NCBI GenBank assembly: GCA_016841745.1
Contig: JAENYO010000001.1
Location: 601,463 to 665,462, forward strand
Reading direction: 5' to 3'
From: Acetomicrobium hydrogeniformans
GTDB taxonomy: Bacteria > Synergistota > Synergistia > Synergistales > JAFGMB01
Length of the DNA stretch: 64,000 bases
Part shown: one piece after another, positions 8,048-46,568 of the stretch
Position numbering within the stretch: the stretch's first letter is position 1
Layout of the letters: each line of letters opens with the position of its first letter
Position numbers and translations under genes: made by a program
Notes under the pieces: model-generated
The model's database searches: none
What the model saw: the letters and a program-made list of their open reading frames with translations, nothing else
Told to the model about the DNA's origin: nothing

Positions 8048-8677
8048 ATGCTTTCAGCTGTAGTTTCGTGGCTTGTCAACACAATTGGTCAGTTGGGATA
8101 TACAGGTATTGTCTGCCTGATGTTCCTTGAGTCATCCTTCTTTCCTTTTCCAAGCGAAGTCGTCATCCCCCCTGCTGGATACCTGGCTTCCAAAGGACAG
8201 ATGAATATTTTTCTGGTAGTGATTATGGGTATCCTTGGAAGCCTTCTGGGCGCCCTTTTCAATTACTGGATTTCCCTTAAGGTCGGTAGACCCTTTTTCA
8301 ACAGGTATGGCAAATATTTTCTTGTTTCAACCCGCACCCTTGACAAGGCTGAGGAATATTTCCAGAAACACGGGCACATCAGCACCCTGATCGGGAGACT
8401 CCTGCCTGGCATAAGGCAGTATATATCAATACCAGCCGGTGTTGCCCGAATGAACATTATTCAATTTACCATTTTCACAGCCTTGGGTTCAGGGATCTGG
8501 GTCCTGATCCTGGCAGTTCTGGGTTACGCCGTAGGTTCAAGTGAAAGCCTTGTAAATATCTACCTCCACAGGTTAACCATTATCCTGATCCTTTTCTGTT
8601 TCGCCCTTGGAGGGACATACTTTATATTTCATAAAAAGAAGGAGAAAAAAGAGACAGGCAAAAACCGGTCTCTTTAG
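8048..8677 (+). CDS. DedA family (VTT-domain) membrane protein
   Basis: The patterns [19 protein letters not shown] and [20 protein letters not shown] are characteristic of DedA/SNARE-associated proteins. AAGGAG SD. Confidence 0.9.
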
Positions 8678-10506
8678 ATATGTTCCATTTTCATCACCGA
8701 GGCAAGCAGGTAAGAATGAGATGAAGGCAGGAACCTTACCTGCTGTCCAAAGGCTCTCGCTATGACCTTGGCCATTTCTGTAAATTCATTTTTGCCTGTA
8801 AGCTTTGCCAGTTCAATGAAATTATCCATGGCTACAGAATTGGCAGAAAGAATGGCCCCGTCATAGGCTTCTTTCCTCCTGAAGAACAGGTCCTCGGAAC
8901 CTTCGCAAGTGGCGTAGAGACCTCCTTTTTCCTTATCCCAGAAAAGAACGGTCATGGTATCCATAAACTTTAAGGACTGAAGAAGGAGTTCTTCCTTCCG
9001 GGTAGCCTTGAATATTTCATTTATTCCCCAGACCATAAAAACGTAGTCATCAAGAAAGGCTTCAACAGCAGCTTCTCCATCTCTGTACCGATGAAAAAGT
9101 TTCCCTTCGGGGGTCCTCATTTTTTTCAGAAAGAAGTCAAGAGCTTTCTCAGCTCTGTGAATATAATCAATATTACCCAATGTCCTTCCAGCATATGCAA
9201 AGGCAGCGATCATCAGTCCGTTCCAGTCCGTGAGGATCTGGTCATCTTTGAAGGGCCTTACCCGTCCATCCCGGACTTTAAGAAGATCTGCCCTGTTACG
9301 GTCTATAAGATGGCAAATATCCTCTTCGGGGATATTTTTCTGACTGGCTATTTCTGCAAATCTTTTCTCCCTGAACAGGATATTGGAACCCGTTTTTTTG
9401 CCAAAGTTCCCTTCATCGAAATTCCCGCCCTTTTCGACGTTGTATATTTCGAGGAAAAAATCCCCATCTTCCCCTAAAGCACTAATTACTTCACCCTTTT
9501 TCCAGGTGTAGAATTTCCCCTCGACTCCTTCACTATCGGCATCTTCAGCCGAGTAAAAAGAACCTTCAGGAGATGTCATATGGGATATTACATAACTGGC
9601 TATATCTTCCAGGGTCCTTTTGAAAAGGGGGTCTCCTGTAACTGCAAAGGCCCTGGTATAGATCACCATGAGAAGAGCCTGGTCGTATAACATCTTCTCA
9701 AAATGAGGCAGGAGCCACTTTTCATCTGTGGAATACCTGTGGAATCCACCGCCTAGATGATCATATATCCCTCCCAGACTCATTTTGGTTAAGGTTTTTT
9801 CAACCATTTCAAGGGATCTCACATCACTGTAGTTCTGCCAGTACTGAAGCAGGAACAGGAGAATACCCGGCATGGGGAATTTAGGGGCAGAAAAGAATCC
9901 TCCCCATTCTTCATCAAAATTCTTCTCCAGTTCCTTAAAACAGCTATCTATAACTACGCGATCAGGCATATCTCCAGGCTCCAGGGAAGAACCCTTTTTA
10001 AGAGATTCCACAAGGCTTTCGGCAGACTGGAGGATCTGTTCCCTCTGGGTAGACCAGAGCCATTTGATCCTTGGAAAGATATCCATCATACCTGGTATTT
10101 TCCCCATACTTTCCCTTGGCATGTATGTTCCTGCAAAAAAAGGACTTCCATCGGGTGTCAGAAAAACATTAAGGGGCCAGCCGCCGCTGTTGTTCATGAC
10201 CTGGCTGACTGCCATAAAGTTTCCATCCAGGTCAGGCCTTTCCTCCCTGTCTACCTTGATACAAACACATACATCGTTCATAAGTTCTGCAACTTCAGGG
10301 TTGTCAAAACATTCTCTTTCCATGACATGGCACCAGTGACAGGTAGAATAACCTATGGATAGAAAAACCGGTTTATCTTCCTCCCTGGCCTTCTGAAATG
10401 CTTCTTTTCCCCATGGGTACCAGTCCACCGGATTATGGGCATGCTGCAGCAGGTAGGGGGATCTTTCGTTTATGAGCCTGTTGGGCTCTTTATTACCGGA
10501 TTTCAT
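8674..10506 (-). CDS. thioredoxin-domain protein of the DUF255/YyaL type (N-terminal thioredoxin fold plus alpha/alpha-toroid)
   Basis: N-terminus [29 protein letters not shown]...[16 protein letters not shown] is the hallmark DUF255 signature. 610 aa. Confidence 0.85.
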
Positions 10507-10627
10507 AAAACCACTCCAATCGATGGATCTTCTTTTATAACCATCTGAAGGGACAGGATATTCAGGTCTGTCTTCAGGTCAAAAAGTATACCAGATATGG
10601 TATTGCCATTTCAAAAGGTCCATTCTC

Positions 10628-11317: not shown

Positions 11318-11944
11318 TCACTGAAAAAGGGTCAGTACCTCCTCCAGGTCTGAAAAGGTTTTCCAGGCCCCTGCACTGGTCAGCGCACTATGGTCAAAAT
11401 TGCCTGTCGTCATGCCAACTCCCCGTACATTTGCGGACTTCGCGGATATCATATCGGCATCAGTGTCACCAACATATATGGTCTCTTCGGGAGAAACATT
11501 AAGCATCTCCATTCCCTTAAGGATCATATCCGGTTCGGGCTTGGCCTTATCCACATCCAGGACTCCCAGGGTACAGCGGAAATATTGAGATAATCCCGCC
11601 GCTTCAACTGCATCACTCACTTTTGAACGGTTTGATGCGACACCCATAACTATTTCCCTTTCCAAAAGATGTTCAAGGAAAGACAGGGTGTTGGGAAAGG
11701 GTATGATCCTGGCATACTCTTTCTCCCTGAAGGTTGCTCTGTAGTTGTCAACCCATGATGGATCAAAACGCCCCCAGAGCCTTTCCCATGACTCATGTAT
11801 GGGCAGTCCTATCACTGAAAGGACCTCTTCCCTGGAGAGAAACCGCAAGCCCTCCCCCTCTGCGATGGCGTTCATTGCTTCAGTGATGGCAAAACTGCTG
11901 TCTACAAGTGTCATATCGAAATCAAAAAGCACTGCCTTTATCAA
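11318..11944 (-). CDS. HAD-superfamily hydrolase (phosphoglycolate phosphatase-like subfamily IA)
   Basis: Motif I LFDFDMTLVDS, motif II GVASNRS, motif IV YVGDTDADM. TTG start with GAGGTG SD. Confidence 0.85.
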   Translation of the reverse strand: MIKAVLFDFDMTLVDSSFAITEAMNAIAEGEGLRFLSREEVLSVIGLPIHESWERLWGRFDPSWVDNYRATFREKEYARIIPFPNTLSFLEHLLEREIVMGVASNRSKVSDAVEAAGLSQYFRCTLGVLDVDKAKPEPDMILKGMEMLNVSPEETIYVGDTDADMISAKSANVRGVGMTTGNFDHSALTSAGAWKTFSDLEEVLTLFQ

Positions 11945-15394: not shown

Positions 15395-15471
15395 CGCCTT
15401 TAAATGAATTATCGCCCTATTATACTAACTATATGAGAATAAAAAAGAATATTTTCTGTTATATTAGATTC

Positions 15472-15504
15472 AAAAGGGGCGAGTCAGAAGACCCGCCCCT
15501 TTTG
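15472..15504 (-). terminator. rho-independent (bidirectional-type) terminator after the small exported-protein genes
   Basis: AAAAGGGGCGAGTCAGAAGACCCGCCCCTTTTG. The GGGGCG/CGCCCC stem is flanked by an A-run and a T-run. It lies 14 nt downstream of the TAG at 15518-15520. Confidence 0.85.
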
Positions 15505-15517
15505 AGTACCTGAAGCA

Positions 15518-15901
15518 CTAATCGCAGCCTTCACCTTCCATAGTCTGGGCAGTGGAAACCTTCAGAACTTTTTTTCCTTTATAGGGAAGGGCTATTACCT
15601 TTACAAGGTTGTTCTGGAATGTCATTCCCTTAGGTACCCAGACCTTCATCTCGTCTTCAGTCAAGAGGTTGAAGTGTTCCGGTTTTTCAGGCATACCGCT
15701 CCAAACCAGAGCGGAAAGCGGTTCTCCTCAGAAGCCCTGATATGTATCGGGTTTTACGAACCACTCATATCCCTGCGGAAGCATTTCCCTTTTTGCCACG
15801 GAAGTTATATCCAGTACAAGATTATCAGCACTTACCGCAGGAAGGATCAGAGTGAATACAAGTACCACAGCAAGTAGCAACAATATCAGTTTGTTTTTCA
15901 T
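15518..15901 (-). CDS. small exported protein, candidate selenoprotein (in-frame TGA at codon 58 read through; 127 aa); paralog of 16005-16397
   Basis: AAAGGAG SD 7 nt upstream of the ATG at 15901. Signal peptide MKNKLILLLLAVVLVFTLILPAVSA|DN. The ORF track stops at TGA 15728-15730, but the same frame stays open for 69 more codons to TAG 15518-15520. Both halves align with the neighbouring paralog, which has a TGA at the aligned position. Confidence 0.55.
15696..15714 (-). promoter_or_regulatory. candidate SECIS-like stem-loop 13 nt downstream of the in-frame UGA
   Basis: On the minus strand: CCGCUC-UGGUUUG-GAGCGG, a 6-bp GC-rich stem with a 7-nt loop containing GGU. It starts 13 nt after UGA 15730-15728. 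The loop lies about 19 nt from the UGA, within the range I recall for bacterial SECIS elements. Confidence 0.35.
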
Positions 15902-16004
15902 GCATATTTCTCCTTTCAAAATAATAGAAGTTCAATCTATATACAATATTCTACAGCTAAAAGGTTAATGGTTGAACCGAAAAACTACTTATTTTACGCA
16001 AAAC

Positions 16005-16397
16005 CTACGTAGTAGACAGAAGGGCTGTATCCACAATAACTACCTTTCTGCCCCGGCTCCTGTCAAGTATCACATGAACCACATTATCCCTGAACTCCAG
16101 ATCTCTTGGAACCCACACACATATCTCTCCTGAATTACACTGAACATAACTATCCTGATCTTTTCTGGGTTTTCCGCGCTTCACGAGCGCCTGCAGCGGA
16201 GCACCTCAGCCTGCTCTGCCCGGTCTTACGTAAAACTCGTTTCCACTCCCGCTTATTTGGGTCAGAGCGTCTTCGTCAATCTCAAGTTTCGGACCAGAGG
16301 GGACATTTAACCACGACGTTCCCTTACCAGTCATAAAGGTAAAACCTGCTACTACCAGAACAACAAGAACTACAACAAGGACAGCACGTCTGGACAT
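16005..16397 (-). CDS. small exported/anchored protein, candidate selenoprotein (in-frame TGA at codon 64 read through; 130 aa); paralog of 15518-15901
   Basis: GAGG lies 8 nt upstream of the ATG at 16397; alternative in-frame starts are at 16403 and 16406. The N-terminus MSRRAVLVVVLVVLVVAGF is an RR-containing hydrophobic leader. The track ORF ends at TGA 16206-16208, but the frame continues for 66 codons to TAG 16005-16007 and aligns with the paralog on both sides of the TGA. Confidence 0.55.
16176..16190 (-). promoter_or_regulatory. candidate SECIS-like stem-loop 15 nt downstream of the in-frame UGA
   Basis: On the minus strand: GCGC-UCGUGAA-GCGC, a 4-bp stem with a 7-nt loop. It occupies exactly the codons homologous to the hairpin in the paralog (Ala-Leu-Val-x-x-Gly). 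One base pair differs in a compensatory way (U-A in copy A, G-C here). Confidence 0.3.
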
Positions 16398-16554: not shown

Positions 16555-19482
16555 ATGCAGATCTTTACTTATCGCAGGATCTCGGAATTGTCTGAAGAGC
16601 TAAACCATCAAGCCTGGACAGACCGGGGTACAACCTCTGAAAAGATTTTCGTGGTTCCTACAAGAGCAGACATGGAACTATTGAAGGAGATAATACTCGA
16701 AAAGGGAGGAATAGGTATCCCCTTCCCCCATATATGGCGTTGGGGAGATCTTTTCAGGGAAATCCAGAATGACGTTCCATCTACTCCCTACCACCGAAGA
16801 CAGATAGATCCCCCAGACCACTGGCTCATCATTCAGCACATCCTGGAGGAGATGCTGAATGATGAGGATTTTTCGTGCCATCTTCCAGGAATAAAGCAGA
16901 AGGGTTTTGCCTCACGACTGGGAGACTCTCTCCGCGACCTTATGCGGGAAGAAATTGAACCGGCCAGCCTTTCAGAAGTCATGAGATGTTCCAGGTGTAG
17001 CGGAAAGGGTAAATGCGGACACGATAAAGAACCGGAAGGGATCCTCTGCAAAGCTTATCATCTCTATTTCAACTATCTGAAAGGATATGGACTCTGTGAT
17101 AGTGCCCAGATAGCCACCCTGACAAGGAAGATCATAGATAAAAGCCCTGAAGGGGCTGAATGGATCAAAAAGAGATCATTCCTCTTGACAGGATTCCTGA
17201 GTTTCAACCACAGTCAGCTAAAACTTGTAAGGGCTCTTTCTCAAAAGGCCGGAGAACTTGTCATCTTCACACCCCAGACAGGAGTAAAAAAAGCCTACAC
17301 TGTGTTGAGCCAGTTCGAGGGAGAAAAAACAGTAAACATCAGCGATAATTCTCCCCTGGACGTTATTCCCATTCAGGGCGGAGACAGACGGCTGGAAATT
17401 GAGACAATTGCACGGGAACTGGTTCTATGGAGCAATTCCACAGGTGAACTCCAGGACAACAGCGGAACTTCCTTTCCCGGATGGGGATATATTTCCATGA
17501 CCTGCCCTCCCGACTACATCCGCCAGGTTGAGGAGGTTTTCGGGAGATATGAACTTCCGTTTATATTGCGGGAGGGACTGACTGTTTCCCAGACCCCTCT
17601 CTGGGAGCTCGCAGGAAGGGTCTGGGACTCTTTTCAGAATGACTGGCCCTCCAGTAAAACAGCAAGACTTCTTCAGGAACCCTTTTTCTGTGGAGACTAT
17701 TTCCCGGTTGAAAGATTTGAGGCAGTCACTCCATCTGGAGAGGATGAATGGTGCAATTTCATTTCCTCCCTGGATAATCCCGGATTTACAGTTTCTTTCG
17801 GGGCCTTTAAGGCTTTCAGCAAGGCCCTTTGTGAAGGGGGAACTGCAGCAGAAATGCTGAAGGCATTAAGGGATCTCTTCGTTGATACGGGAGCGGAAAT
17901 GAAGATCTCTTCCTACGTTATGAAAATGGAAGAACTTGATGAAACCTGTAGAAGAATGAACGCTGCTATCAGGGAAACTGAGGAAAAACTGGTTTCCATA
18001 AGTGAACTTGTTGAAAATATAGGTCCTGCAGGAAAAGATAAACTTAAGGGTAACAAGGCCTTCGAATTCCTCCGTAGATGGGCTGAAACATCCACAATCT
18101 GGAATGCCCCTTCGAGAGGTGATTCCATAGAAGTATATCCCGGGACTCCTCCAGTCCTCGCGAGAAACCGGTTGTGGATATTTGCCGGTGTTTCTTCAGG
18201 AAACTGGCCTGGAATTCTAAGGGAAACCGATCTTCTTCCCGATTCGAGAAAAGAGACTCTTCATTCCGGCCTGGACCTTGGAGAAGGCCATCTACCCCTT
18301 GTTCCTGAACTGAGAAGGCAGAAAGAGTACCTTTTCCGAAGAATCATTGCTTGCGGAGAAGATCTCAGTCTTCTTTCATGGCCTGGAACTGATAATTCAG
18401 GAAGACCTCTCTCAGCTTCACCATTTCTGGAAAGATCTCTTGAAAAAGGGAATAGCGTCTGGGCTTCAAATACAGCCGGAAATGGGAAACTTATAACCAG
18501 AGGTCTGAACCGTATTCTCCCTCTTGATACCGAAGTACGTGTAATGGGAGTTGAAGTTGGAGAACTGGAACATTCTCCTTCCTCCATGAAGGGACGTATC
18601 CTTCCCCTACCAAGGATGGAACCTGAAGAAAAAGCTTTGATAGTATCCATCAGTTCCATTGATGACTGGATAGCCTGTCCTTTCCTCTATTACTGCAGAC
18701 ACATATTAAAAATGGAAGAAAAGATCCGCACCGGTTTTGACAGAATGAAATCAGGGATAGCCCTCCATAAGATCTGGGAAGTCACCTGGAGAAAATACCT
18801 GGATGAGGGCGGATCACTTCAATATACTTCCAGAATTTTCCTGGAAGGATCATTGAAGGAATGTTATCCGGAACTTCTCTCTGCCCCCTCCCTGAAAAGG
18901 CATCTGAAAAGATTCGAAACAGATCTTTCCAAGGGTGGAGATCTTCAGGACCAGATGGAAGGGAGGTCAATCCGAAGAAAGAATTCACCTCCTATCCTGG
19001 AAGGGAAGCTGCCCGACCTCGAGATAGAAGGAATAATCTTCAGAGGACGTTTTGACCGCCTGGACATCCTTAATGGAGGCAGTGCTGTGGTCATAGACTA
19101 CAAAAGCGGTAACAGTTCCCGATTCAGAAACAGCATGCAACTGGCAGCCTACTGTCTGCTCCTCAAAAAAGCTTCTCATACCATGAATAATCCTTTTGAA
19201 GAAATATGCGGTTACGGCTATCTCTGTCATTCCGACGGAAGGATAACAGGATCCTCCTGCGATGGAGTTACAGCTGAATACCTGGGCCTTCCGAAGAAAG
19301 CCATCTCCCTGGACGAAAAACTGGAGAAAGCCGAATATCATCTTACTGAAATGGCAGAAAGCATCCGGAGGGGGGAATTCGTTCCCGATTATTACTCTGA
19401 ATCCTGCAGGTACTGCCCCTATTCAGGAATATGCAGAAGACAGGAAAATCCGGAAGGAGAAATCCAGGATGATAGGGACTGA
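16555..19482 (+). CDS. AddB-like helicase-nuclease subunit (PD-(D/E)XK nuclease with Fe-S cysteines; no Walker A seen)
   Basis: C-terminal RecB-type nuclease context (FRGRFDRLD...VVIDYKSG). Cys pattern CPFLYYC ... CRYCPYSGIC (C...CxxCx5C) as in AddB iron-staple domains. I could not see a GxxGxGK(T/S) motif at the N-terminus. The gene overlaps the downstream addA-like gene by 14 nt. Confidence 0.8.
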   Translation: MQIFTYRRISELSEELNHQAWTDRGTTSEKIFVVPTRADMELLKEIILEKGGIGIPFPHIWRWGDLFREIQNDVPSTPYHRRQIDPPDHWLIIQHILEEMLNDEDFSCHLPGIKQKGFASRLGDSLRDLMREEIEPASLSEVMRCSRCSGKGKCGHDKEPEGILCKAYHLYFNYLKGYGLCDSAQIATLTRKIIDKSPEGAEWIKKRSFLLTGFLSFNHSQLKLVRALSQKAGELVIFTPQTGVKKAYTVLSQFEGEKTVNISDNSPLDVIPIQGGDRRLEIETIARELVLWSNSTGELQDNSGTSFPGWGYISMTCPPDYIRQVEEVFGRYELPFILREGLTVSQTPLWELAGRVWDSFQNDWPSSKTARLLQEPFFCGDYFPVERFEAVTPSGEDEWCNFISSLDNPGFTVSFGAFKAFSKALCEGGTAAEMLKALRDLFVDTGAEMKISSYVMKMEELDETCRRMNAAIRETEEKLVSISELVENIGPAGKDKLKGNKAFEFLRRWAETSTIWNAPSRGDSIEVYPGTPPVLARNRLWIFAGVSSGNWPGILRETDLLPDSRKETLHSGLDLGEGHLPLVPELRRQKEYLFRRIIACGEDLSLLSWPGTDNSGRPLSASPFLERSLEKGNSVWASNTAGNGKLITRGLNRILPLDTEVRVMGVEVGELEHSPSSMKGRILPLPRMEPEEKALIVSISSIDDWIACPFLYYCRHILKMEEKIRTGFDRMKSGIALHKIWEVTWRKYLDEGGSLQYTSRIFLEGSLKECYPELLSAPSLKRHLKRFETDLSKGGDLQDQMEGRSIRRKNSPPILEGKLPDLEIEGIIFRGRFDRLDILNGGSAVVIDYKSGNSSRFRNSMQLAAYCLLLKKASHTMNNPFEEICGYGYLCHSDGRITGSSCDGVTAEYLGLPKKAISLDEKLEKAEYHLTEMAESIRRGEFVPDYYSESCRYCPYSGICRRQENPEGEIQDDRD

Positions 19483-22400
19483 CAGGAAAGAAACAATTAC
19501 AGGCATAGAGGAACTCACAGTCCTTCTGGAAAAGACCACCCTTCCTGGACAAAGGGAAGCAATTATGGCTGAAGAGCCCCTGGTGGTAGTAAGCGCGGGG
19601 GCGGGAACAGGGAAAACCTGGACCCTGGCCTGGCGTTTTGTATGGGCAATCGCCACAGGAAAAGCAAAGGTAAAGGAGATATTGACCCTTACTTTTACCG
19701 AAAAAGCCGCTCTGGAAATGAAGGATAGGATAAGGGATCTACTCAGGAAGGTGGCCTGTATAGTGCCATCACTGTCCCCTCTCCTTGAAGAAGCCCGGGA
19801 AGAGATGGACGAAGCCTTTATTTCCACCCTTCATTCCTTTTCCATGAGAGTGATAAGGGAAGGGGGACTGTCCCTCGAGCTGGACCCTGAATCAAGACCA
19901 GTGGGTACTCCTGAGGAGGAAGACCTCTGGCGGGAAGTAGAAAAACGACTGGACTGCCTGGATAATCGCTGGTTCAAAAAAAGAGTCAGAGGAAGCTGGA
20001 AATCCAGAGAGGAACAGATATTCGGTAAACCCTTTCTGACAGACCTGGTAAACAGCTATGGAGCAAGGGGTATCACCGACCTGGCAAGGGAGATATTATC
20101 CCTATGGGCAAGTAGAGGACAAAACCCTGAGGACCTCTGGTCTTTCTCCAAAGATCTGAAAAAGAGGGACCAGGAAGCCCTGGCCAGCGTCAGGGAGATA
20201 TACGCGACTGCCTTTGAAGAAGAATGGCAACGATGGTCAGGTTCGGAGGGAATAATTCCTGGACTGCCCATACTCCTTGAAAGCAAGACTAAACTGGCTG
20301 AGAAACTCAGGGGTGTTCACTTAAAATGGGGAAAGGGAAAACCTCAAAGGGAAGATCTGCCTCTGTTTTTCCTTAATCTCATGGAAGCTCTGAAGGGCGC
20401 TTCCGGAAAAGCGGCAGCGGAAATAGCAGAGGAGCTGAAATGCTCCGTATCAGAGTTCCGGAATCAACACTCCGAATATATCAGATTATGTGGAGTCCTG
20501 GTTCAGGGCATGGACGAAAGAGACAGGCAGACCAGAGAAGCCCTGCTGGAGGTTTCTTCACTTTTATGGCAGATCTGGGAAGAACACAAGATAAGGAAGA
20601 GTCTGATCTCCTTCGATGATATGATCTCCAGATCCATTGAGGCCCTTGAGGTTGGAAGTATGGCAAAAAGGTTCCGGGAAGTCCTTGTTGACGAATTTCA
20701 GGATACCAACAGACTTCAGGAGATTCTTCTCAGGACCATTTGGGAAAGGGGATCTCCTGCTATGTTCCTGGTGGGCGACCTGAAACAGTCCATCTACCGG
20801 TTCCGGCATGCCGAACCTTCCATTTTCCTGAAATATATACAGGAAGCTAGACAGGGAAAGGGCAAATACGTAAACCTTGATGTCAGTTTCCGTAGCAGCG
20901 GGAAAGTTCTGGAGGGTATAAACTCTATCTTCGGGGAAATATGGAAAAAGGGTCTGGGAAGGGACCTTCTCCATCCTTATGAGCATCTGAAAAGCCCTGT
21001 GACCATGAATTGGCACAGCATAAGACAGGAAATCCAGACTCCTCCTCTGAAGGTCCTTGTTGAATTCTATATAGCAGGGGAAGAAAAAACATCTGCAGAA
21101 GAGAAGAGACTTGATCTTGCCAGGAGGCTGGGTCAGGAATTACTGCAACTCAGGAAAAAGGGCTCCCTTATCTGGGATAAAAAAGAAGAAGGATTGAGAC
21201 CTCTCCAGTGGAGGGATATGGCTATACTTGTGCCGACGAGAAACCAGTACAGTGCCATTGAAAAGGCCTTCATCGAAGACCTGTCCATTCCCTGCTATTT
21301 TGAGAGTAACCTGGGATATTATTCCCGAAGTGAAGTTCAGGACCTCCTTTCCCTGGTCGATTATCTGGCAGACAAAAGGGACCAGACAGCCCTTGCATCC
21401 TTTCTTTCCTCACCCTTTTCAGGTATCTCGCTGGAGAAGGCAGGAGAGCTTCTTAAAGAGAAAAGAGATACTGGAAAAACCCTTGCTGAGACCCTGCTGC
21501 ACATAGATTCTTCCCTTTTCCATGAGCTGGAAAGATGGAGACGGATAGCCACACTGGAAGGAGTTTCAAGGGTATTCTCCCTTATACTTTCTAGAGCTGA
21601 TGCGCTTAAGGCTTTCCCCGCGTGGAAAAGGAAGAAAGCAGCTGCGAACCTTCGCAAGGCCGTAGATATCAGCAGGGAATACGAAAGTGCTATGGGAAAG
21701 GATCTGAGAGGCTGTTCCGAGTACCTTCGCGGATCCATGGGAAGAGGTATAGCCATGGAAGATGCCGATTTCACAGGGGAACAGGATGACGTTGTCAGGA
21801 TAATGACAGTGCATGCTTCGAAGGGGCTCGAATTCCCCGTTCTGGCAATAATGGGAATGGAGTATTTCCCTGGAAAAAGGAGTCACGGAACCAGTCTTGA
21901 TCCATCGGGAATCCTTGGCGTTACTCCTTCCAGATACCCCGATGGGATAGCATTTGATAAAAAGGATATCCCGTCTTCCCCTGTACTCGCGGCAATGATG
22001 GAAAAACAGGAGCAGCTGGAAGAATGGCAGCGGCTGTTCTACGTCGCAGCCACAAGGGCAAGGGATTCTCTGTTCCTTTGCGCAACTCTGGAAGCAAAGG
22101 ACGGAGAAAATCCAGAGACCAAAGATGGTACATGGCTGTCAATGGTAAGGGAAAAGATTTTTCCGGATCTTCCACTTGCCACAGACAGGGTAAAAACAGC
22201 GAAAAAACAAAACATGAAAGTTCATGAACAGAAAGAAAGACTCTCTGTGCAAGGACCGGTAAAGGGGAATGAATATCTGGCCAGGTTAAGTGCCACATCA
22301 TACGGTCTCTTTAAATTCTGCCCCCTGGCCTGGAGGATGAGACACCGTCAGGGAAGAGAACTCAAATGGGAACTCCCTGGAGAAGAGGGGCCGGGAGGGT

Positions 22401-23050
22401 CGGACCTGGGAAACCTTGCCCATTGGATACTCCAGAAATGGGACCTGTCAGAAGAGGGTTTGGAAAACTACCTGCCTTTGACAGGAATGGAATACAACGT
22501 TAAGAATACCGGGATACCTCTCTATATTCTGCCGGAATGGAAAAAGCCGGACAGCAGGGAGATACTTCGAAAATGGCTCAGGGACTTTTCAATATCTGAA
22601 ACAGGAAGAACTGTAAAAGACCTCCTCTGCCGGGGGGTGCTACACCGGGAACTGCCTTTTAGGATCAGAATGGACAATGGTCCCCTTCTCACCGGTGCCA
22701 TGGACCTCCGGTGGGAAAAGGACGGGATAATTCATATCAGGGATTACAAGATAACTGCCCTGGAAAGGGCGCCAGAGGAACTTTATACCAGTCAACTGCT
22801 CTTCTACGGCTGGACAGCCTATCACGCTTTCAGGGACAGGGACCTGCCCGTTGACCTGAGACTCATTCACCTCCGGGAAGGAATCGAAACTGAAAGGATC
22901 GCCATGCCCGGAGGGGGCATGGAAGAAATTGAGGAAGATATCCGACGAAGCGCACAAAAAGCTGCAAATGGTCCTTTTGAACCTGAGCTGGACAAATGCA
23001 ACTCCTGTCCCTTCAGAAATAAATGCCCCATCCATGGGGACACAAGGTAA
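19469..23050 (+). CDS. AddA-like UvrD/Rep-family helicase with C-terminal PD-(D/E)XK nuclease
   Basis: Walker A SAGAGTGKTWTL, motif II VDEFQDTN, and TVHASKGLEFP. The C-terminal nuclease has IHIRDYKIT and the Cys pattern FCPLAW...CNSCPFRNKC. I chose the start ATG at 19469 (AAGGAG 9 nt upstream) rather than the track start at 19262, which lies inside the addB-like gene. Confidence 0.85.
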   Translation: MIGTDRKETITGIEELTVLLEKTTLPGQREAIMAEEPLVVVSAGAGTGKTWTLAWRFVWAIATGKAKVKEILTLTFTEKAALEMKDRIRDLLRKVACIVPSLSPLLEEAREEMDEAFISTLHSFSMRVIREGGLSLELDPESRPVGTPEEEDLWREVEKRLDCLDNRWFKKRVRGSWKSREEQIFGKPFLTDLVNSYGARGITDLAREILSLWASRGQNPEDLWSFSKDLKKRDQEALASVREIYATAFEEEWQRWSGSEGIIPGLPILLESKTKLAEKLRGVHLKWGKGKPQREDLPLFFLNLMEALKGASGKAAAEIAEELKCSVSEFRNQHSEYIRLCGVLVQGMDERDRQTREALLEVSSLLWQIWEEHKIRKSLISFDDMISRSIEALEVGSMAKRFREVLVDEFQDTNRLQEILLRTIWERGSPAMFLVGDLKQSIYRFRHAEPSIFLKYIQEARQGKGKYVNLDVSFRSSGKVLEGINSIFGEIWKKGLGRDLLHPYEHLKSPVTMNWHSIRQEIQTPPLKVLVEFYIAGEEKTSAEEKRLDLARRLGQELLQLRKKGSLIWDKKEEGLRPLQWRDMAILVPTRNQYSAIEKAFIEDLSIPCYFESNLGYYSRSEVQDLLSLVDYLADKRDQTALASFLSSPFSGISLEKAGELLKEKRDTGKTLAETLLHIDSSLFHELERWRRIATLEGVSRVFSLILSRADALKAFPAWKRKKAAANLRKAVDISREYESAMGKDLRGCSEYLRGSMGRGIAMEDADFTGEQDDVVRIMTVHASKGLEFPVLAIMGMEYFPGKRSHGTSLDPSGILGVTPSRYPDGIAFDKKDIPSSPVLAAMMEKQEQLEEWQRLFYVAATRARDSLFLCATLEAKDGENPETKDGTWLSMVREKIFPDLPLATDRVKTAKKQNMKVHEQKERLSVQGPVKGNEYLARLSATSYGLFKFCPLAWRMRHRQGRELKWELPGEEGPGGSDLGNLAHWILQKWDLSEEGLENYLPLTGMEYNVKNTGIPLYILPEWKKPDSREILRKWLRDFSISETGRTVKDLLCRGVLHRELPFRIRMDNGPLLTGAMDLRWEKDGIIHIRDYKITALERAPEELYTSQLLFYGWTAYHAFRDRDLPVDLRLIHLREGIETERIAMPGGGMEEIEEDIRRSAQKAANGPFEPELDKCNSCPFRNKCPIHGDTR

Positions 23051-26510: not shown

Positions 26511-28621
<2,111 letters not shown>

Positions 28622-28710: not shown

Positions 28711-28946
28711 ATCTTCATAAGAGATGGAACAGGAACATGAATATCCATTTAATCATATGAACTGCTTTAAATTAACAACCAACTAAAATCATTAATTTCT
28801 TTGGACTTCCTTTATGCAGTTTGATATACTTCAATTAGACATACTGTTACATGATGATTTAATATCGTTTTATCTGAATAAATATAAAAATATCTATTTC
28901 CCTTTGAATCTGTATTATTAATCTAAACCTCTTGGCAGGAGATATC

Positions 28947-30893
28947 ATGAGAAAAATCACGAATATCCTCTTTCTTGTAATGGTAATAGCTGTTTTACCT
29001 GTCAGTTCCTCTTTTGCTTCTTACGGAGGAGTTGTCCTTGCACTGTCTGGTGGAGGAACAAGAGGTTTTGCCCATGTAGGAGTCCTTAAGGTTCTTGAAG
29101 AGGAAAATATACCTATCGTCGGAATTGTCGGTACCAGCATGGGTTCCATTATAGGCGGCGTTGCCGCCTGCGGTTACTCTGTTTCAGAGGTTCAGGATAT
29201 CGTCATAAACCTGGATCTAAGAAATTTGCTCTACGACAGGTCAAAACCTTCAGATTCTCCCCTTGGCAAAGAAGACCATGAGGAAGTTCAATCTTTTTAC
29301 AGAGTCCTTCTGGACGAGAAAGGGAAAGTTGTGGGACCACTAGGGGGGCTTAGCGGTCTCAAACTTCTCGATAAGCTTAAAGAAATTACATATCCATGCA
29401 GAGATATCAGATATTTCAAAGATCTTCCAATACCTTTTGCAGCGGTAGCTACTGATCTTGTTGAAAAGAAATCCGTTGTTCTTCGCTCAGGGTCCCTCGC
29501 GGAATCTATGCGTGCATCCATGTCAATACCCGGTCTTTTCCAGCCCTGGGAAATAGATGGCAGACTTTTTGTCGATGGAGGTCTTCTTGCAAATATCCCT
29601 GTCACTATTGCCAGAAAAGAATTTCCTGGTTATCCGGTAATAGCTGTAAATATTACAGGAGGAGGAAAGCAACGGGAAGACATACGTTCTGTAGCCGATG
29701 TCATTGACCAGAGTATTAATATTATGACCTCAGCTTCAGAAAATGAAGAAATCGAAAAAGCTGATATGGTCATAAGACCAGATGTGGGAAATCTTCCCAT
29801 ATTGAGTACAGGAAATTTTCAGGATATCTTTAAAAAAGGAGAGGAACAGGCAAGAGAACAAATTGAAGAACTTAGGCTTTTGGCCTCTAATAGTCCTCCA
29901 GCTCCGAAAACCAAAGGCATTATCCTGGCAGTAGAAGAAGCAAAAGAAGAAATAGTTCCCTTCGATTTTAGGACCCATGGCTCCAGAGAGTATACCTATG
30001 ATGTGATCCTTGGAGGATACTACTCCAGTTTCCATTCTCATAACTGGCTATACGGAAATGTCCTGATGAGAAACATTTGGGAGAAAGACGATGTCCTTGT
30101 AGCTCAGTCTATTCTCGGAAAAGAGTGGGGTTTAAAATTCAGATACCTTGATGCCGGAAACGAAAAGTCACGCCGAACTGATATTGCCCTTGCTTTTCGG
30201 CATAGAAAGTTCGAACCTAGGAATAGTTCTGATACCGCATGGAACAGGTTTTCGATATATGCGGCAGAAAGGTTTTCAAAGGGACCCTTCAGAATGGGCA
30301 TAGGAATAACCGGGGAATATTACGATTATGACGGAGGAAGCGATTCTCACGTAGGACCACAGGCTTTTATTCTATATAACTCCCTGGACGACTCCCTGGA
30401 CCCGACCAGTGGAACATCTCTCCGGGCTGATGTTTTCTGGAGAGATGCAGATACTCTTCTTGCAAAACTCAAGTTTCAGAATGTTCATAGCTTAGGTAAT
30501 TCAAAAATTAGATTAATCCTTAAAGGTGGGTTTTTCGCTGGAGATATGGATAACCCTTACAGCAGAGCCTATCTTGGAGGACAGGAAGAATTATATTCTC
30601 TGGCAGAACATCCACTTGTCGGAGAAAATTCGGCATGGTGGAGAGTAATTTTAAGAAAAGCTCTTCTCGATAGCTGGTGGGGATCTGTTAATGCTGAACT
30701 TTTCTATGGGAGAGGTTATCTTCTTGACGACTCTTTCGAATCTCTGGAGGAACCATGGGAAACCGGATTAGCGCTGTTCATTCCGGGAAGCGTCCTGAAT
30801 GCAAGGGTAATGGCTCTATATGACCAGGAAGAGGATTGGCAATTCGGGATTAGTCTGGGACTCCCCTTGTGGGATGGAGGGGTCTACCCCTGA
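28947..30893 (+). CDS. patatin-like phospholipase with a signal peptide and a beta-rich C-terminal ~300-aa domain (possibly a PlpD-like outer-membrane-anchored lipase)
   Basis: Oxyanion GGGTRGFAHVG, nucleophile GTSMGS (GxSxG), and catalytic Asp in VDGGLLANIP. N-terminal signal MRKITNILFLVMVIAVLPVSSSFA. The C-terminal half has an alternating, aromatic-rich pattern. AGGAG lies 5 nt upstream of the ATG at 28947. Confidence 0.8.
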   Translation: MRKITNILFLVMVIAVLPVSSSFASYGGVVLALSGGGTRGFAHVGVLKVLEEENIPIVGIVGTSMGSIIGGVAACGYSVSEVQDIVINLDLRNLLYDRSKPSDSPLGKEDHEEVQSFYRVLLDEKGKVVGPLGGLSGLKLLDKLKEITYPCRDIRYFKDLPIPFAAVATDLVEKKSVVLRSGSLAESMRASMSIPGLFQPWEIDGRLFVDGGLLANIPVTIARKEFPGYPVIAVNITGGGKQREDIRSVADVIDQSINIMTSASENEEIEKADMVIRPDVGNLPILSTGNFQDIFKKGEEQAREQIEELRLLASNSPPAPKTKGIILAVEEAKEEIVPFDFRTHGSREYTYDVILGGYYSSFHSHNWLYGNVLMRNIWEKDDVLVAQSILGKEWGLKFRYLDAGNEKSRRTDIALAFRHRKFEPRNSSDTAWNRFSIYAAERFSKGPFRMGIGITGEYYDYDGGSDSHVGPQAFILYNSLDDSLDPTSGTSLRADVFWRDADTLLAKLKFQNVHSLGNSKIRLILKGGFFAGDMDNPYSRAYLGGQEELYSLAEHPLVGENSAWWRVILRKALLDSWWGSVNAELFYGRGYLLDDSFESLEEPWETGLALFIPGSVLNARVMALYDQEEDWQFGISLGLPLWDGGVYP

Positions 30894-42096: not shown

Positions 42097-45000
42097 CTAA
42101 TCCATACCTTCGTGGATCAGGCCATCCCTGATGCGATATATTCCCGGAGTATTCCCTTTTTCTTTTATAACTGAAGATATCATTTCAAGAAAAGCCGGAT
42201 TACAGGAAAAAAAGAAAACCTGCTGATAACGGGAATGCTCCATCAGAACCTCTGCAAGGTGTTTCTGACGGTCTAGATCAAAGCGAAGATGGATGTCATC
42301 AAGAATTACCGGCAGGACTCCAGAAGTTCCGCTGAGGCTTCTGGTTACTGCAAGACGGATGGCCAGATAGGCCTGATCAGCCAGGCCACTGCTCCATTCC
42401 TGGCTTCCTTTCCTTACAAGAGTCCGTTTATCGGAAAGAAATATCCGGCGGTCAAGAGCTGAACACAATAGTCCATACCTCCCTCCTGTAATGATCTCCA
42501 TATACTTACCGGCCATTTTTGTAACCCTAGGCTGTCTCTGAATTTCATGGATTTCCCTTGCCTTTGCCAGCAAAGCTCTACATATGGCAAGAGCAGCCCA
42601 TTTCATAGAGTTGTCCCGGCATTTTGCATGGAGAAATTCTTTTTCCTGGATCACTCGACTCTGCTTATCTTCAAGGGAAAGTTCCTGAAGGCGCATCTCC
42701 AGTTTTGCAAGCAACCCTATGCTTTCCTCCCTTTTCGTAGATAAGGAGTTTATCTTTTCAGTATTTTTTTCCAGATCCATCTCAAGAGCAAGGGTATCTA
42801 CATTATTCAGTCTTTCGACCAGTTTCTCAAGCAGGTTCTCATTACCAGCCAATCCTATCAACCTTGCCACAAGTTCCATCTCCAGGTTCTTCAATTCAGA
42901 AAGACGGCCATATTCTTCGATCCTTGAAAAGAATGTTTCCTCAGAAAAAGCATTAGATCTGTTCATCAGTTCTTCCATTTCGGAAAGGGCACATTCAGAC
43001 CTTTGCTGATGTTCTGATCTTTGGGTAAGGAGATCCCCATACTCCTTCTCCAGGATGGATATTTTCCTCTGGGCTTCCGTACTTTCCTTCAACTTGCCGG
43101 CAAGGAAGGTTATCCTGTCTGTAATATCAGCCTCAAAGGACAGGTCACACAAAAAACAAAGGTTATCCAGATCCTCATTTTTAACTCTCTCAAGCTCCTT
43201 CAGCTTTTTGATCTTTTCAGATATTTCATGTTTTCGTATAGAGACCCTGGAAGCTGAAAGAATGGTCTGGATAAGGATCTGAAAAGTCTCAGGTTCCGTA
43301 TTGAGAGGGAGGTTCTTATCTTCAAGATATTTATTCCACTCCTTTTGCCATTCTGCGAGACTCTCCCGTGAAATTGTGACCTTATCTTCAATGAAAGCGA
43401 GTGCCTTGACCTGCTTCTGAAATTTTTCATGGAGGTCACATATTTTCTGAAGAACACGCTCTCTCTCCCTGGCCTCAGCCAGCCTCAGGTTTGCCCGTAT
43501 AACCTGTTCATCCAGTTGCTCTCTGTTGAAATCCTCATCCAGGACCATGTTCTCTGTAAGTAGGAATACATTCCTGTTGAGAACATCCATCAGACCTTCC
43601 TGGATCGAAAGTTCGGTCTTTATCTTTTCTGTTTTTTCAATGATCATGTGTCTTTCTTTTTCTGAAGTTTTACGGGATTTTCTGGCATTGATATCCTGTT
43701 TTCTCCAGAAAAACATAAGAAAAAATGAAAAGATCAGAGAAAGAGTGGTATAAAAAGCTGAATATACAGATCCTAACCAGTAATGAACTAAAGGAATACC
43801 TGCAATAACAAGAATTGCGGAATAAGACAGGAAACTTGCCCGGATCGGTGTTTCATAGATTTCCGCCATAGAGTCAACAGCTTTCAGCCTTTCCCTATAA
43901 TCCTCAAGACTTCCTTCGAGGGACCTGATATTTTCATACAGATGCTCCCTCTGAAGAAGTAACTCTCCCGTTTTTCTAAGATCATCGATAAACCTTGAAA
44001 CATTTTCTACGGTTTCATCATCATCTCCATATTCTGAAAAGGCTATTCTTGCTTGTGAAAGTTCTTCCATAGCATGATCCTTCTCTTTTCCAGCCCTTTC
44101 AAAGAGGAGTTTTGCCTGAAGATGCTCATTTTCCAGAATCTTAAACCTGTTGATAAGTTCAAGAGCCTCTTTCCCGGCAGCAAGGGAAGTATTAGCCCTT
44201 TCCAGGTTTTCCATCTTCCAGTCAGGAGATATATGAAAAAGCTGTTGCGAAAGATCAATTGAAAGGGTCTTCAGTTTTTCTTCCATGAATGAGATTTCTG
44301 AATGAAGATCTGCAAGCCTGGATCTTTCATCCCTCAGGGATTCTATCCTCTCTGCAAGATCCATAAGCTTGGAATTAACCTCGAGATGACCCTTTTCAAT
44401 GATTATATTTTCCATATTTTTCTCTATTTTACTTAGCTGATCCTTATGAAAGGTTATATTTCTTTTTATGTCAGCATATCTTTCCTTTGCACCGGGGGGA
44501 AGATCTTTGACATTCTCTTCGAGAGAAGATATCTCCTTTTTTACACCCTGAAGCCTGGCAAAAGGTTCCAGAAGAGAGTGTAGCCGTTTAAGTTCCATGT
44601 CGTTTTTTCTGAGAAAGTCCAGTTCAAGGGTAATGTCTCCTATTTCTCTGGAGAGGATTTCCTTCTTTTCTCCCAGATGGGCATATTCATTCTCAAGATG
44701 GGCAAGTTGCCTGATCTCTTTCTGTACTTCCCCCAATCTGCTGGAATCATCCCTTATCAGGGATCGAGAACGTATAGACCTGTTACGGGCGAGTTTCTGC
44801 ATTTCCTTTTCAAGTTTTGAGAAGGTCTCTGAAATAGAGATGTCACCAAGGCCGGCTCCAGCTGCGAAAAGCCTGTTCCTGAGTTTATCTTCATCCAGAA
44901 GGGAATCAGCATCCAGGTAAAGGTCATCCAGTCCTACAGCAAATACCCTTTCAAAAAGGTGTCTGTCAAGCCCTCCGATCTTTTCAAGTCCACTGGCATG

Positions 45001-45300
45001 ATCCAGAGAGTCACCTTTCTGGTCGCTTACATGGACCTTCCTGTTCCTGAGTTCGAAGATCAATGAGTTTCCATTTTCCAGAGCAATCTCCATGGTACCT
45101 CCATGACCCCCACCCTGGAGGGGTTCATCCCTGGGAGAATTTCTTGACATTCCGAACAGAACTGATCTCATAAATCTCAGAAGGGTGGATTTGCCACTCT
45201 CATTATCTCCAGTAAAAATATTCAGACCAGAGGAAATGTCATTTATTCCAGTGTTATGGAGTATGCCGAAACCATTAACATGAAAGGACTTTATTTTCAA
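42097..45300 (-). CDS. YhaN-like SbcC/Rad50-family AAA ATPase with long coiled coils and a central membrane hairpin
   Basis: N-terminal Walker A GDNESGKST, and a C-terminal signature/Walker B region (SSGLADQAYLAIRL ... PVILDDIHLRFD). About 900 aa are coiled-coil-prone. Two hydrophobic helices at aa 488-532 (nt 43705-43839). Coupled by a 4-nt overlap to an SbcD-like gene. Confidence 0.75.
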   Translation of the reverse strand: MKIKSFHVNGFGILHNTGINDISSGLNIFTGDNESGKSTLLRFMRSVLFGMSRNSPRDEPLQGGGHGGTMEIALENGNSLIFELRNRKVHVSDQKGDSLDHASGLEKIGGLDRHLFERVFAVGLDDLYLDADSLLDEDKLRNRLFAAGAGLGDISISETFSKLEKEMQKLARNRSIRSRSLIRDDSSRLGEVQKEIRQLAHLENEYAHLGEKKEILSREIGDITLELDFLRKNDMELKRLHSLLEPFARLQGVKKEISSLEENVKDLPPGAKERYADIKRNITFHKDQLSKIEKNMENIIIEKGHLEVNSKLMDLAERIESLRDERSRLADLHSEISFMEEKLKTLSIDLSQQLFHISPDWKMENLERANTSLAAGKEALELINRFKILENEHLQAKLLFERAGKEKDHAMEELSQARIAFSEYGDDDETVENVSRFIDDLRKTGELLLQREHLYENIRSLEGSLEDYRERLKAVDSMAEIYETPIRASFLSYSAILVIAGIPLVHYWLGSVYSAFYTTLSLIFSFFLMFFWRKQDINARKSRKTSEKERHMIIEKTEKIKTELSIQEGLMDVLNRNVFLLTENMVLDEDFNREQLDEQVIRANLRLAEARERERVLQKICDLHEKFQKQVKALAFIEDKVTISRESLAEWQKEWNKYLEDKNLPLNTEPETFQILIQTILSASRVSIRKHEISEKIKKLKELERVKNEDLDNLCFLCDLSFEADITDRITFLAGKLKESTEAQRKISILEKEYGDLLTQRSEHQQRSECALSEMEELMNRSNAFSEETFFSRIEEYGRLSELKNLEMELVARLIGLAGNENLLEKLVERLNNVDTLALEMDLEKNTEKINSLSTKREESIGLLAKLEMRLQELSLEDKQSRVIQEKEFLHAKCRDNSMKWAALAICRALLAKAREIHEIQRQPRVTKMAGKYMEIITGGRYGLLCSALDRRIFLSDKRTLVRKGSQEWSSGLADQAYLAIRLAVTRSLSGTSGVLPVILDDIHLRFDLDRQKHLAEVLMEHSRYQQVFFFSCNPAFLEMISSVIKEKGNTPGIYRIRDGLIHEGMD

Positions 45301-46568
45301 AGTTTGTCTCCTCCAAGAAGTCCTGTCAGACCGATCTTCTCCGCCTCATCAAGGATCTCCTCAAGCACTTCCGGGGCCTCTATATCTGCGAGAAAGTCCT
45401 GAACCAGCTTAAAAGCTTCATCCTGCCTTATCATATCAGCTGCCATGGATGGATCTTTCCTTGCCAGATCACATAACTGAAGAAAGTCTGCTATAAAATC
45501 ATTCCCCTTTCTGAGTCTATCCCTGTCAAGTGGAAGATGCGCCATATTTTTTATTGATTCTATCCATATCTGGTCAAGTTTTCTTTTCTCATTCTCCCGG
45601 ATAAGGTCAAGCATATCTTTCTGAAAATCCAGATTTTCCAGGAGGGGAACAACTTCAGATTCCCCTTTGAGGATTACCCTCAGTATGGAGGGTAATCCTT
45701 CAGCCCTTAATCTCTGAAGGTCACAAAGATCTCTCAGGCTATCAACAAGCTCTTCTGTCGAATTAACTGACGAAAGATCAAGCTCTGCTTCAGACCAGAG
45801 AATCTGTGAAGTAGAATGGAATTGGATTGCCATGATCTTCCTGTCTTCCACTTCAACAAGGTAACAGCCTCTTTTCCCTTTTTCACCAATATGTCTTCCC
45901 TGGATATTCCCGGAATAGACTACTGCCGGTTCAGATCCTCTTATTACACCTGGCATATGGATATGGCCGAGAGCCCAGTAGTCGATCCCTGTGCTTACAA
46001 GATCCGCCAGGGAACAGGGTGAATAATTCTGATGGCCGGGGGAGCTTCCCCCGAGATTACAGTGAAGCAGACCTATCTTGAACAGAGCAGAGTCATCCCG
46101 GGCATTGAAAAGGGATGCCAGATTACGGAACTCCTCTGCTCTCTTATAACTTATTCCATATATTTCAGCACAGGCCTGTCCTTTCCGGAAGTAGATCTTC
46201 TTCTCCACTTCCTGTCCAAACCTGTGAACACAGGAAGGGAAGGAAATACCAGATCTCCAGCTATCAAGAGGATCATGGTTGCCATGAACTATGAAACACT
46301 CTATCCCCCTATCCAGAGCCCTTTGAAGTATATCCCTGAAACCAAGCTGGGCCCGAATACTTCCATCTCCCTGATCATAGATATCACCCGAAATAAGAAT
46401 AAAGTCAGCACCTTCATCTATTGCAATATCTACTACTCTTTCAAAAGCACGAAAAGTTGCACTGACAAGCATTTTAGCAAGACGGGGATCGGAAGAGGCT
46501 ATTCCAGTAAAGGGACTGTCCAGATGAAGATCTGAACAATGAACAAAACTGAAAGAATTACCTGACAT
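45297..46568 (-). CDS. YhaO/SbcD-like DNA-repair metallophosphoesterase (exonuclease)
   Basis: Calcineurin-like motifs FVHCSDLHLD, ISGDIYD, VHGNHD and GHIH. 423 aa. Overlaps the start of the downstream ATPase gene. Confidence 0.8.
   Translation of the reverse strand: MSGNSFSFVHCSDLHLDSPFTGIASSDPRLAKMLVSATFRAFERVVDIAIDEGADFILISGDIYDQGDGSIRAQLGFRDILQRALDRGIECFIVHGNHDPLDSWRSGISFPSCVHRFGQEVEKKIYFRKGQACAEIYGISYKRAEEFRNLASLFNARDDSALFKIGLLHCNLGGSSPGHQNYSPCSLADLVSTGIDYWALGHIHMPGVIRGSEPAVVYSGNIQGRHIGEKGKRGCYLVEVEDRKIMAIQFHSTSQILWSEAELDLSSVNSTEELVDSLRDLCDLQRLRAEGLPSILRVILKGESEVVPLLENLDFQKDMLDLIRENEKRKLDQIWIESIKNMAHLPLDRDRLRKGNDFIADFLQLCDLARKDPSMAADMIRQDEAFKLVQDFLADIEAPEVLEEILDEAEKIGLTGLLGGDKL

Follow-up and report, generated by a model that had tools for sequence, protein, structure and literature searches.

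A stretch of 64,000 nucleotides of Acetomicrobium hydrogeniformans DNA (contig JAENYO010000001.1, positions 601,463 to 665,462; here, the window) contains two neighboring, paralogous minus-strand genes, copies A and B, each with a TGA codon in the middle of its reading frame. Comparison with homologous sequences makes it very probable that each copy is a single gene for a small selenoprotein, that its UGA is read as selenocysteine (Sec) by means of a selenocysteine insertion sequence (SECIS), and that the two products are divergent, exported relatives of the NCBIfam family NF041239. Both copies were previously unannotated. The proposal involves neither a new decoding mechanism nor a new family.

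The frame of copy A consists of 57 codons, the TGA, and 69 more codons to a TAG, and that of copy B consists of 63 codons, the TGA, and 66 more codons to a TAG. The positions of the TGA and TAG codons and the numbers of codons past the TGA are those that an earlier reading of the letters of this DNA (the sequence-only reading) had given for two frames running through a TGA. Around the predicted Sec, copy A reads ...TYQGF-U-GEPLSALVWSGMPEK. The read-through proteins of the two copies are 37% identical over 90 residues that extend across the TGA (E value of 1e-16). Nine of the first 15 residues past the TGA are identical, and seven of these nine are encoded by different synonymous codons, a count that a recount reproduced exactly; over the entire part downstream of the TGA, the two copies share 25 of 60 residues, and the codons differ at 18 of these 25. 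An open frame beyond a TGA means little by itself, because 50 frames in the window are open for at least 50 codons on both sides of a TGA, mostly antisense to real genes. The signal above this chance level is conservation on both sides of the TGA, between copies A and B and among their homologs. TGA is also the ordinary stop codon of 25 of the 46 long open reading frames (ORFs) in the window, in agreement with the earlier remark that it is a genuine stop elsewhere in this DNA. Thus, decoding at copies A and B is site specific, and a global reassignment of TGA in this genome was rejected on the same count.

A protein search with the read-through sequence of copy A, in which U was replaced by C, gave no matches. 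An exhaustive hidden Markov model (HMM) protein search, with the exact C-terminal halves of copies A and B as queries, returned seven proteins of 54 to 64 residues, all of which begin a few residues past the aligned TGA, and profile searches with 9- and 47-sequence alignments recovered C-terminal fragments only. Each contig with such a fragment has the same frame open farther upstream, through a TGA and into an N-terminal half that is conserved. Locus L002 contains tandem orthologs of both copies, each with the TGA; loci L011 to L015, which include the NCBI Aminobacterium genome, contain a single copy. The Aminobacterium gene (L013:2755-3165; GCA_000526395.1) is kept at NCBI only as the 54-residue hypothetical protein WP_156923319.1. 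A scan of genome contigs with a narrow pattern from a 5-sequence alignment had as its sole match a Synergistales metagenome-assembled genome (MAG) chromosome (OY762654.1, 88% identity). The nearest genome to the host is a Synergistales MAG, and a homolog is also present in Aminobacterium.

Metagenome DNA was scanned with the pattern TGH-N15-GCN YTN GTN-N6-GGN-N3-CCN-N48-TGG RTN CC, which was built on the invariant residues of the family and allowed TGA, TGC, or TGT at the critical codon. The pattern matched 94 stretches (80 listed as loci), and about 85 family members were recognized by HMM (E values of 1e-13 to 1e-37). All of these HMM-confirmed matches have TGA, and the few matches with TGC or TGT had no family score (our own scoring of the fetched loci). 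When all loci were scanned in six frames with the HMM, the aligned codon was TGA in 108 of 108 homologous copies. These include B-type paralogs (L018, L025, and L078) and the Aminobacterium, L002, and L003 genes, which were not selected by that codon. A homolog search had been put forward as a check in the sequence-only reading; its outcome is a TGA in every copy recovered, with Cys forms not found by searches that were either limited by a word index or biased toward SECIS-bearing sequences.

NF041239 ("CC/Se motif family (seleno)protein") is the only family matched by both window proteins, and the alignments cover model positions 2 to 89 of 91, spanning the TGA. It is also the top NCBIfam match, and the only meaningful score, of all 47 family representatives (best E value of 1.5e-13). 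Relatives of the L006 type (50.8 bits) and the L067 type (43.2 bits) score above the 40-bit cutoff of the model, and others score 29 to 38 bits; the relatives that pass carry Sec in the same column and the same hairpin as the window genes. Two of the database fragments carry a precomputed match to the corresponding Pfam family, PF28096 (CC_Se_fam). A 2026 review of prokaryotic selenoproteins (PMC13188914) includes the CC/Se motif family, and a 2016 survey contained eight selenoproteins of this family (PMC5029168 supplement). Judged by these sequence matches, the window genes are divergent relatives of a recognized family that lie below its curated threshold, and the earlier description of them as an unrecognized family does not hold: both proteins match NF041239, closer relatives pass its cutoff, and the family appears in the review and in Pfam.

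Public annotation keeps only C-terminal pieces of 54 to 64 residues (fragments P0001 to P0021), and the selenoprotein is missed in Aminobacterium and Thermovirgaceae genomes. Since gene callers and NCBI split the genes, a whole selenoprotein clade is missing from counts of the Synergistota selenoproteome.

A covarying hairpin past the TGA

Both copies can form a hairpin shortly after the UGA (Table 1), and the family alignment shows that it is conserved. In a gap-free alignment of 72 distinct family sequences (A5), RNAalifold and our own structure agree on a stem in which columns 28 to 32 pair with columns 38 to 42, extendable to columns 26 to 33 with 37 to 44. The stem is 5 to 8 bp long. The loop sequence is CGUNG or, among members of the copy A clade, GGUUU, and G34 and U35 are invariant. 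The pair formed by columns 30 and 40 covaries: 35 sequences have U-A, 32 have C-G, and 3, those of the copy B clade, have G-C; in the remaining 2 it is broken. Of these columns, 30 falls on the wobble position of an Ala codon and 40 on the first position of a Ser, Gly, or Arg codon three codons on; protein-level selection does not explain the coupling of the two. Stem cells in A5 are paired in 87% of cases, compared to 39 to 55% when the 3' partner is slid by 1 to 3 columns, and the observed covariation score was reached in none of 500 shuffles.

The folding energies agree with the alignment. The minimum free energy (MFE) of 27-nt hairpin windows averages −11.1 kcal/mol, compared to −3.5 kcal/mol for control windows from the same genes, and 90% of the hairpin windows but 7.6% of the controls have an MFE of −7.5 kcal/mol or lower. 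When single sequences were folded, the z-scores of the hairpin regions did not reach significance, so that only the comparative analysis was informative, and Rfam at gathering thresholds gave no matches in the window. The consensus for a bacterial SECIS (bSECIS) is a loop of 3 to 5 nt with G followed by U (N1-G-U-N-N2), a distance of 16 to 37 nt from UGA to loop, and an MFE of −7.5 kcal/mol or lower (PMC13188914). By sequence and predicted folding, the hairpin of copy A and of the family fits this consensus, and that of copy B is borderline on energy only. A SECIS search past both TGAs had been suggested earlier as a check; it yields a hairpin at the right distance that contains a covarying pair.

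The hairpin (A5 columns 28 to 44) lies exactly at the codons of the invariant protein motif Ala-Leu-Val..Gly, and the conservation of this motif is probably imposed in part by the RNA. The family may serve as an example of a SECIS that freezes a protein motif. In the mechanism that we propose, the in-coding hairpin, which overlaps the Ala-Leu-Val codons, would act as a bacterial SECIS during translation and would recruit SelB with Sec-tRNA(Sec); Sec would be inserted at the UGA, and the ribosome would go on to the TAG. Copy A would yield a 127-residue precursor, and cleavage of its signal peptide, of the general secretory type, would leave a periplasmic protein of about 102 residues with Sec and a Cys near the C terminus. 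Copy B would yield a protein of 130 residues that retains its N-terminal membrane anchor and carries Sec.

Alternatives to selenocysteine and the weight of the evidence

The TGA might be read through without Sec, by a near-cognate Trp or Cys tRNA or a suppressor tRNA, with the hairpin serving only to stimulate read-through. The present sequence data do not indicate which amino acid is inserted, and this counts in favor of such a reading. We nevertheless consider it very unlikely. The hairpin agrees with the consensus for SelB-type SECIS elements in its distance from the UGA, its loop size, and its G-U loop bases, and the TGA is never replaced by a Trp, Cys, or Gly codon in the 108 copies. The recoded residue lies in a Gly-rich loop, is beside a Cys in 25 of 83 members, and occupies the place at which A-type carriers have a ligand Cys. 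In addition, the related family has been catalogued among the selenoproteins, and Sec use is widespread in the host phylum: Sec is used in 13 of 14 Synergistetes genomes, and six selenoproteins are attributed to Aminobacterium colombiense (PMC5029168).

Each locus might instead hold two small genes, one for an N-terminal exported peptide that ends at the TGA and one for a downstream protein of about 60 residues that is made from its own start or by termination-reinitiation. Gene callers annotate the loci in this way, databases hold C-terminal products of 54 to 64 residues (WP_156923319.1, with 54 residues, for example), and in copy A a GGAG precedes an ATG at position 15694 that opens a 58-residue ORF. 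Among the homologs, no start codon is conserved past the TGA, a finding that bears directly on the separate downstream gene that had been named as grounds for refutation. Among the 83 distinct members, 17 lack any ATG, GTG, or TTG in the first 29 codons past the TGA, and the sole frequent candidate, the Val of the ALV motif, is encoded by GTC in 30 members, GTG in 27, GTT in 23, and GTA in 3. Five of six orthologs lack the internal ATG of copy A, as seen from their codons at this position (TCT, CCG, CAA, GAA, and CAA), and the apparent Shine-Dalgarno sequence GGAG is the 3' arm of the hairpin (window positions 15694 to 15714). The 11 codons from TGA to ATG show the strongest conservation of the whole gene, with 0 to 3 amino acid changes compared to 2 to 5 synonymous changes. 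Finally, the curated single-domain HMM NF041239 and the alignment to the carrier protein IscA (see below) both span the junction. Two separate genes per locus were therefore rejected, for want of a conserved downstream start and because the domain model spans the TGA; we give this arrangement slightly less credence than read-through without Sec. A pseudogene with a nonsense mutation, or a sequencing or assembly error, for which only the stop codon itself speaks, has next to no chance of being correct and is refuted by conservation, that is, by the same TGA in both paralogs and in 108 copies with purifying selection on both sides.

Several results weigh against reading copies A and B as selenoproteins of this family. 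The NF041239 scores of copy A (26.0 to 26.7 bits) and copy B (22.8 bits) are below the cutoff of 40. The minimal form of the copy B hairpin, at −7.4 kcal/mol, is borderline relative to the criterion of −7.5 kcal/mol (a longer fold reaches −15.1 kcal/mol). A tRNA scan of the window found no tRNA, and none of selA, selB, selC, and selD was seen in that scan and in the 10 window ORFs that were scanned. Cys homologs were found neither in four protein searches, which were limited by a word index, nor by tblastn against plasmids, which returned nothing, nor among the SECIS-biased TGH pattern matches; because a Cys-containing homolog was not found, the usual argument from Sec/Cys pairs is missing. 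The metagenome pattern requires the Ala-Leu-Val..Gly.Pro codons, which are the hairpin codons, so it is biased toward SECIS-bearing members and against Cys forms that lack a SECIS, and the absence of Cys forms among its matches is not proof. We maintain the Sec reading for both copies. Site-specific decoding of the TGA by Sec insertion, as proposed in the sequence-only reading, is strongly supported, as much the best explanation, by the invariant TGA, the lack of a conserved downstream start, and the covarying SECIS-type hairpin.

Leaders, tandem arrangement, and gene neighborhood

Table 1. Positions of the predicted elements of copies A and B in the window
Feature	Position	Strand	Remarks
Copy A, complete predicted selenoprotein gene	15518..15901	-	127 codons + stop; ATG 15901; TAG 15520-15518
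Copy A in-frame TGA, predicted Sec codon	15728..15730	-	Residue 58 of precursor
Copy A signal peptide (MKNKLILLLLAVVLVFTLILPAVSA), cleavage predicted after AVSA	15827..15901	-	By inspection
Copy A SECIS-like hairpin CCGCUCU-GGUUU-GGAGCGG	15696..15714	-	Loop starts 20 nt after UGA; MFE −11.0 kcal/mol (27-nt window)
Copy A C-terminal Cys codon, tail ..MEGEGCD	15524..15526	-	Tail MEGEGC[GD] kept in all A-type orthologs
Hairpin then UUUU, probable transcription terminator	15465..15512	-	Just past copy A TAG; MFE −31.2 kcal/mol
Copy B, complete predicted selenoprotein gene	16005..16397	-	130 codons + stop; ATG 16397; TAG 16007-16005
Copy B in-frame TGA, predicted Sec codon	16206..16208	-	Residue 64
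Copy B N-terminal hydrophobic segment (AVLVVVLVVLVVAGFTFM), probable membrane anchor	16332..16385	-	By inspection
Copy B SECIS-like hairpin GCGCU-CGUGA-AGCGC	16176..16190	-	Loop starts 20 nt after UGA; MFE −7.4 kcal/mol (27-nt window)

The start codon of copy A has a GGAG 8 nt upstream, and a GAGGTGA lies upstream of that of copy B. By inspection, the copy A leader combines a basic n-region with a hydrophobic core of 16 residues, and the residues at −3 and −1 are small. On inspection, six or seven copy A orthologs share this layout (..LPALAS|, ..LPVLAS|, or ..MPVFAS|); its conservation in six orthologs supports the classical signal peptide that had been noted for this copy on the basis of its own sequence. 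A hydrophobic segment at the N terminus is common to all B-type orthologs, which have neither a conserved AxA site nor a conserved twin arginine: RR is present only in the window copy and in L016, and the other B orthologs have RG, KR, KKG, or NGR. A twin-arginine translocation (Tat) leader was rejected for copy B because its motif is not conserved among orthologs, and a plain N-terminal membrane anchor is likelier. Of the two suggestions made earlier for this leader, Tat-like or membrane anchor, the second is thus retained and the first is not.

The copy A clade has the motif QGF-U-GEPLSALV and ends in MEGEGC[GD], with a conserved C-terminal Cys that had been overlooked in the sequence-only reading. 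A Cys within the last 12 residues is found in 46 of 83 family members. The copy B clade has Sec without any conserved Cys, and the earlier observation that neither copy contains a CxxU or UxxC motif is correct. Orthologs of the A type with the same layout are present in loci L001, L002, L016, L018, L025, L038, L043, L078, and L080, and orthologs of the B type are present in L001, L002, L003, L016, L018, L025, and L078. The gene order, B and then A about 460 nt apart, is repeated in six other loci. The novel element is a clade marked by a conserved gene pair in which, as predicted from sequence, B is membrane anchored and A has a cleavable signal peptide.

No terminator-like hairpin comes after the TGA of copy A; the strong one lies past its TAG. 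It is flanked by A-run and U-run sequences, and a comparable hairpin lies 3' of the copy A ortholog in L002; a simple consensus terminator scan of the window did not call it.

The A-type gene is followed by a gene for an FAH-family hydrolase in seven loci. Leaderless relatives are found in a block composed of an HD-domain protein, an RluA-family pseudouridine synthase, the selenoprotein gene, and glutamate dehydrogenase (L005 to L010 and about 49 metagenome loci). These neighborhoods look like lineage synteny rather than a functional operon and give no functional clue. A divergent PDDEXK_1 (AddB-like) gene adjoins the selenoprotein gene both in the window (a 975-residue ORF at 16555-19482, plus strand) and in L011 to L015 (978 residues). 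HAD hydrolase and thioredoxin-domain (DsbH-like) genes further downstream also recur (window positions 11318-11944 and 8674-10506).

Other features of the window were noted in passing. The helicase/nuclease-like ORFs at 16555-19482 and 19262-23050 (plus strand) overlap by about 220 nt, and the second probably starts farther downstream than listed. A 347-residue ORF at 47331-48374 (minus strand) scores 132.9 bits against TIGR02486, below the cutoff of 160 (reductive dehalogenase/QueG-type Fe-S/cobalamin enzymes). Genes for gyrB, a patatin-like phospholipase, an SbcC/SbcD-like pair, and an RtcB-family RNA ligase are located at 26720-28621, 28932-30893, 42097-46568, and 51039-52481, respectively; none is selenium related. 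A further in-frame TGA lies at 10579-10581 (minus strand), 24 codons upstream of the ATG of a 610-residue thioredoxin-domain ORF and preceded by 54 open codons; it is probably due to chance, because the Aminobacterium homolog has 605 residues.

Fold and comparison with known systems

The 47-sequence alignment was compared by hhalign to four sequences taken from the output of a PDB search (IscA, SufA, Aq_1857, and HI1723), with a resulting probability of 78% over 97 columns. In this register, Sec is opposite Cys35 of IscA and the C-terminal Cys is opposite the CGCG tail. One family member matches the SufA model TIGR01997 over 70 residues in the same register (E values of 0.003 to 0.012). A model of the C-terminal half has four strands and a mean confidence score (pLDDT) of 76.7, and the three best TM-scores among the 36 Foldseek matches listed for it are to IscA (1x0g; 0.44 and 0.39) and SufA (2d2a; 0.40, with a root mean square deviation of 3.2 Å). 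On the other side of the balance, the Foldseek search with this half gave no significant match (E values above 2), a PDB profile search gave no match, and matches to PF01521, in 7 of 47 members, are weak and below threshold (best E value of 0.075). A comparison by hhalign to a single IscA sequence was uninformative (5.5%), and TIGR01911 (HesB-like selenoprotein) was not matched at an E value of ≤0.01 in 47 members or ≤0.1 in 10 members. With moderate confidence, then, we suggest from the alignments and the model that these proteins have a HesB/IscA-like domain with Sec at the position of Cys35 of IscA.

By analogy, and with low confidence, this domain could provide a selenol-based site for the binding or relay of a metal, Fe-S, or a chalcogen, which in copies A and B would be outside the cytoplasm. 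More speculatively, membrane-anchored B and secreted A could form a conserved two-component extracytoplasmic selenol relay on a HesB/IscA-like fold within a wider family that is obligately Sec dependent, an extension that we regard as improbable. Such a relay would function, for example, in metal, Fe-S, or chalcogen trafficking in the Synergistota periplasm, and a family without Cys-using forms would be exceptional among bacterial selenoproteins.

The candidate SECIS can be compared to the canonical bacterial SECIS (the E. coli fdhF type and the consensus of Zhang and Gladyshev). Like these, it is an in-coding hairpin just past the UGA, and it agrees with the bSECIS consensus in loop size, in the G-U loop bases, in the 20-nt distance from UGA to loop, and in that N1 and N2 of the loop pattern can pair. 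It differs from the canonical element in that the stem is short (5 to 8 bp) and has no obvious bulged U.

The proteins resemble the HesB-like selenoprotein (TIGR01911) and the IscA/SufA/ErpA carriers (PF01521) in being small and having a single domain. In the known HesB-like selenoprotein, Sec replaces the same Cys as the one proposed here. In the suggested register with the carriers, the family Sec follows a Gly-rich turn past the second strand, at the position of Cys35, and a Cys is located near the C terminus. Unlike the carriers, the family has a single C-terminal Cys (none in copy B) instead of CxC, and the window proteins are predicted to be exported and have no link to isc/suf operons. 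The motif of the HesB-like selenoprotein has been given as UxGP (PMC13188914). Most relatives of the window proteins have G[SGA]G-U-[C/G/S/A], often with a C-terminal ..GGC.. tail.

In relation to the catalogued NF041239 family, the window proteins share a domain of about 95 residues that aligns from end to end. The name of the family suggests a U-C or C-C dipeptide; adjacent Cys of this kind is absent from both window copies, where the motif is U-G, whereas U-C is present in 25 of 83 relatives. For the family, the data also provide a well-supported SECIS model with covariation, and they suggest, as a hypothesis on structure, a HesB/IscA-like fold in which Sec takes the place of the ligand cysteine. 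In most relatives the protein begins about 33 residues ahead of Sec and has no leader, whereas the window copies have a signal peptide (A) or an anchor (B) and form a conserved tandem pair, adding to the family an exported, tandem-paired branch.

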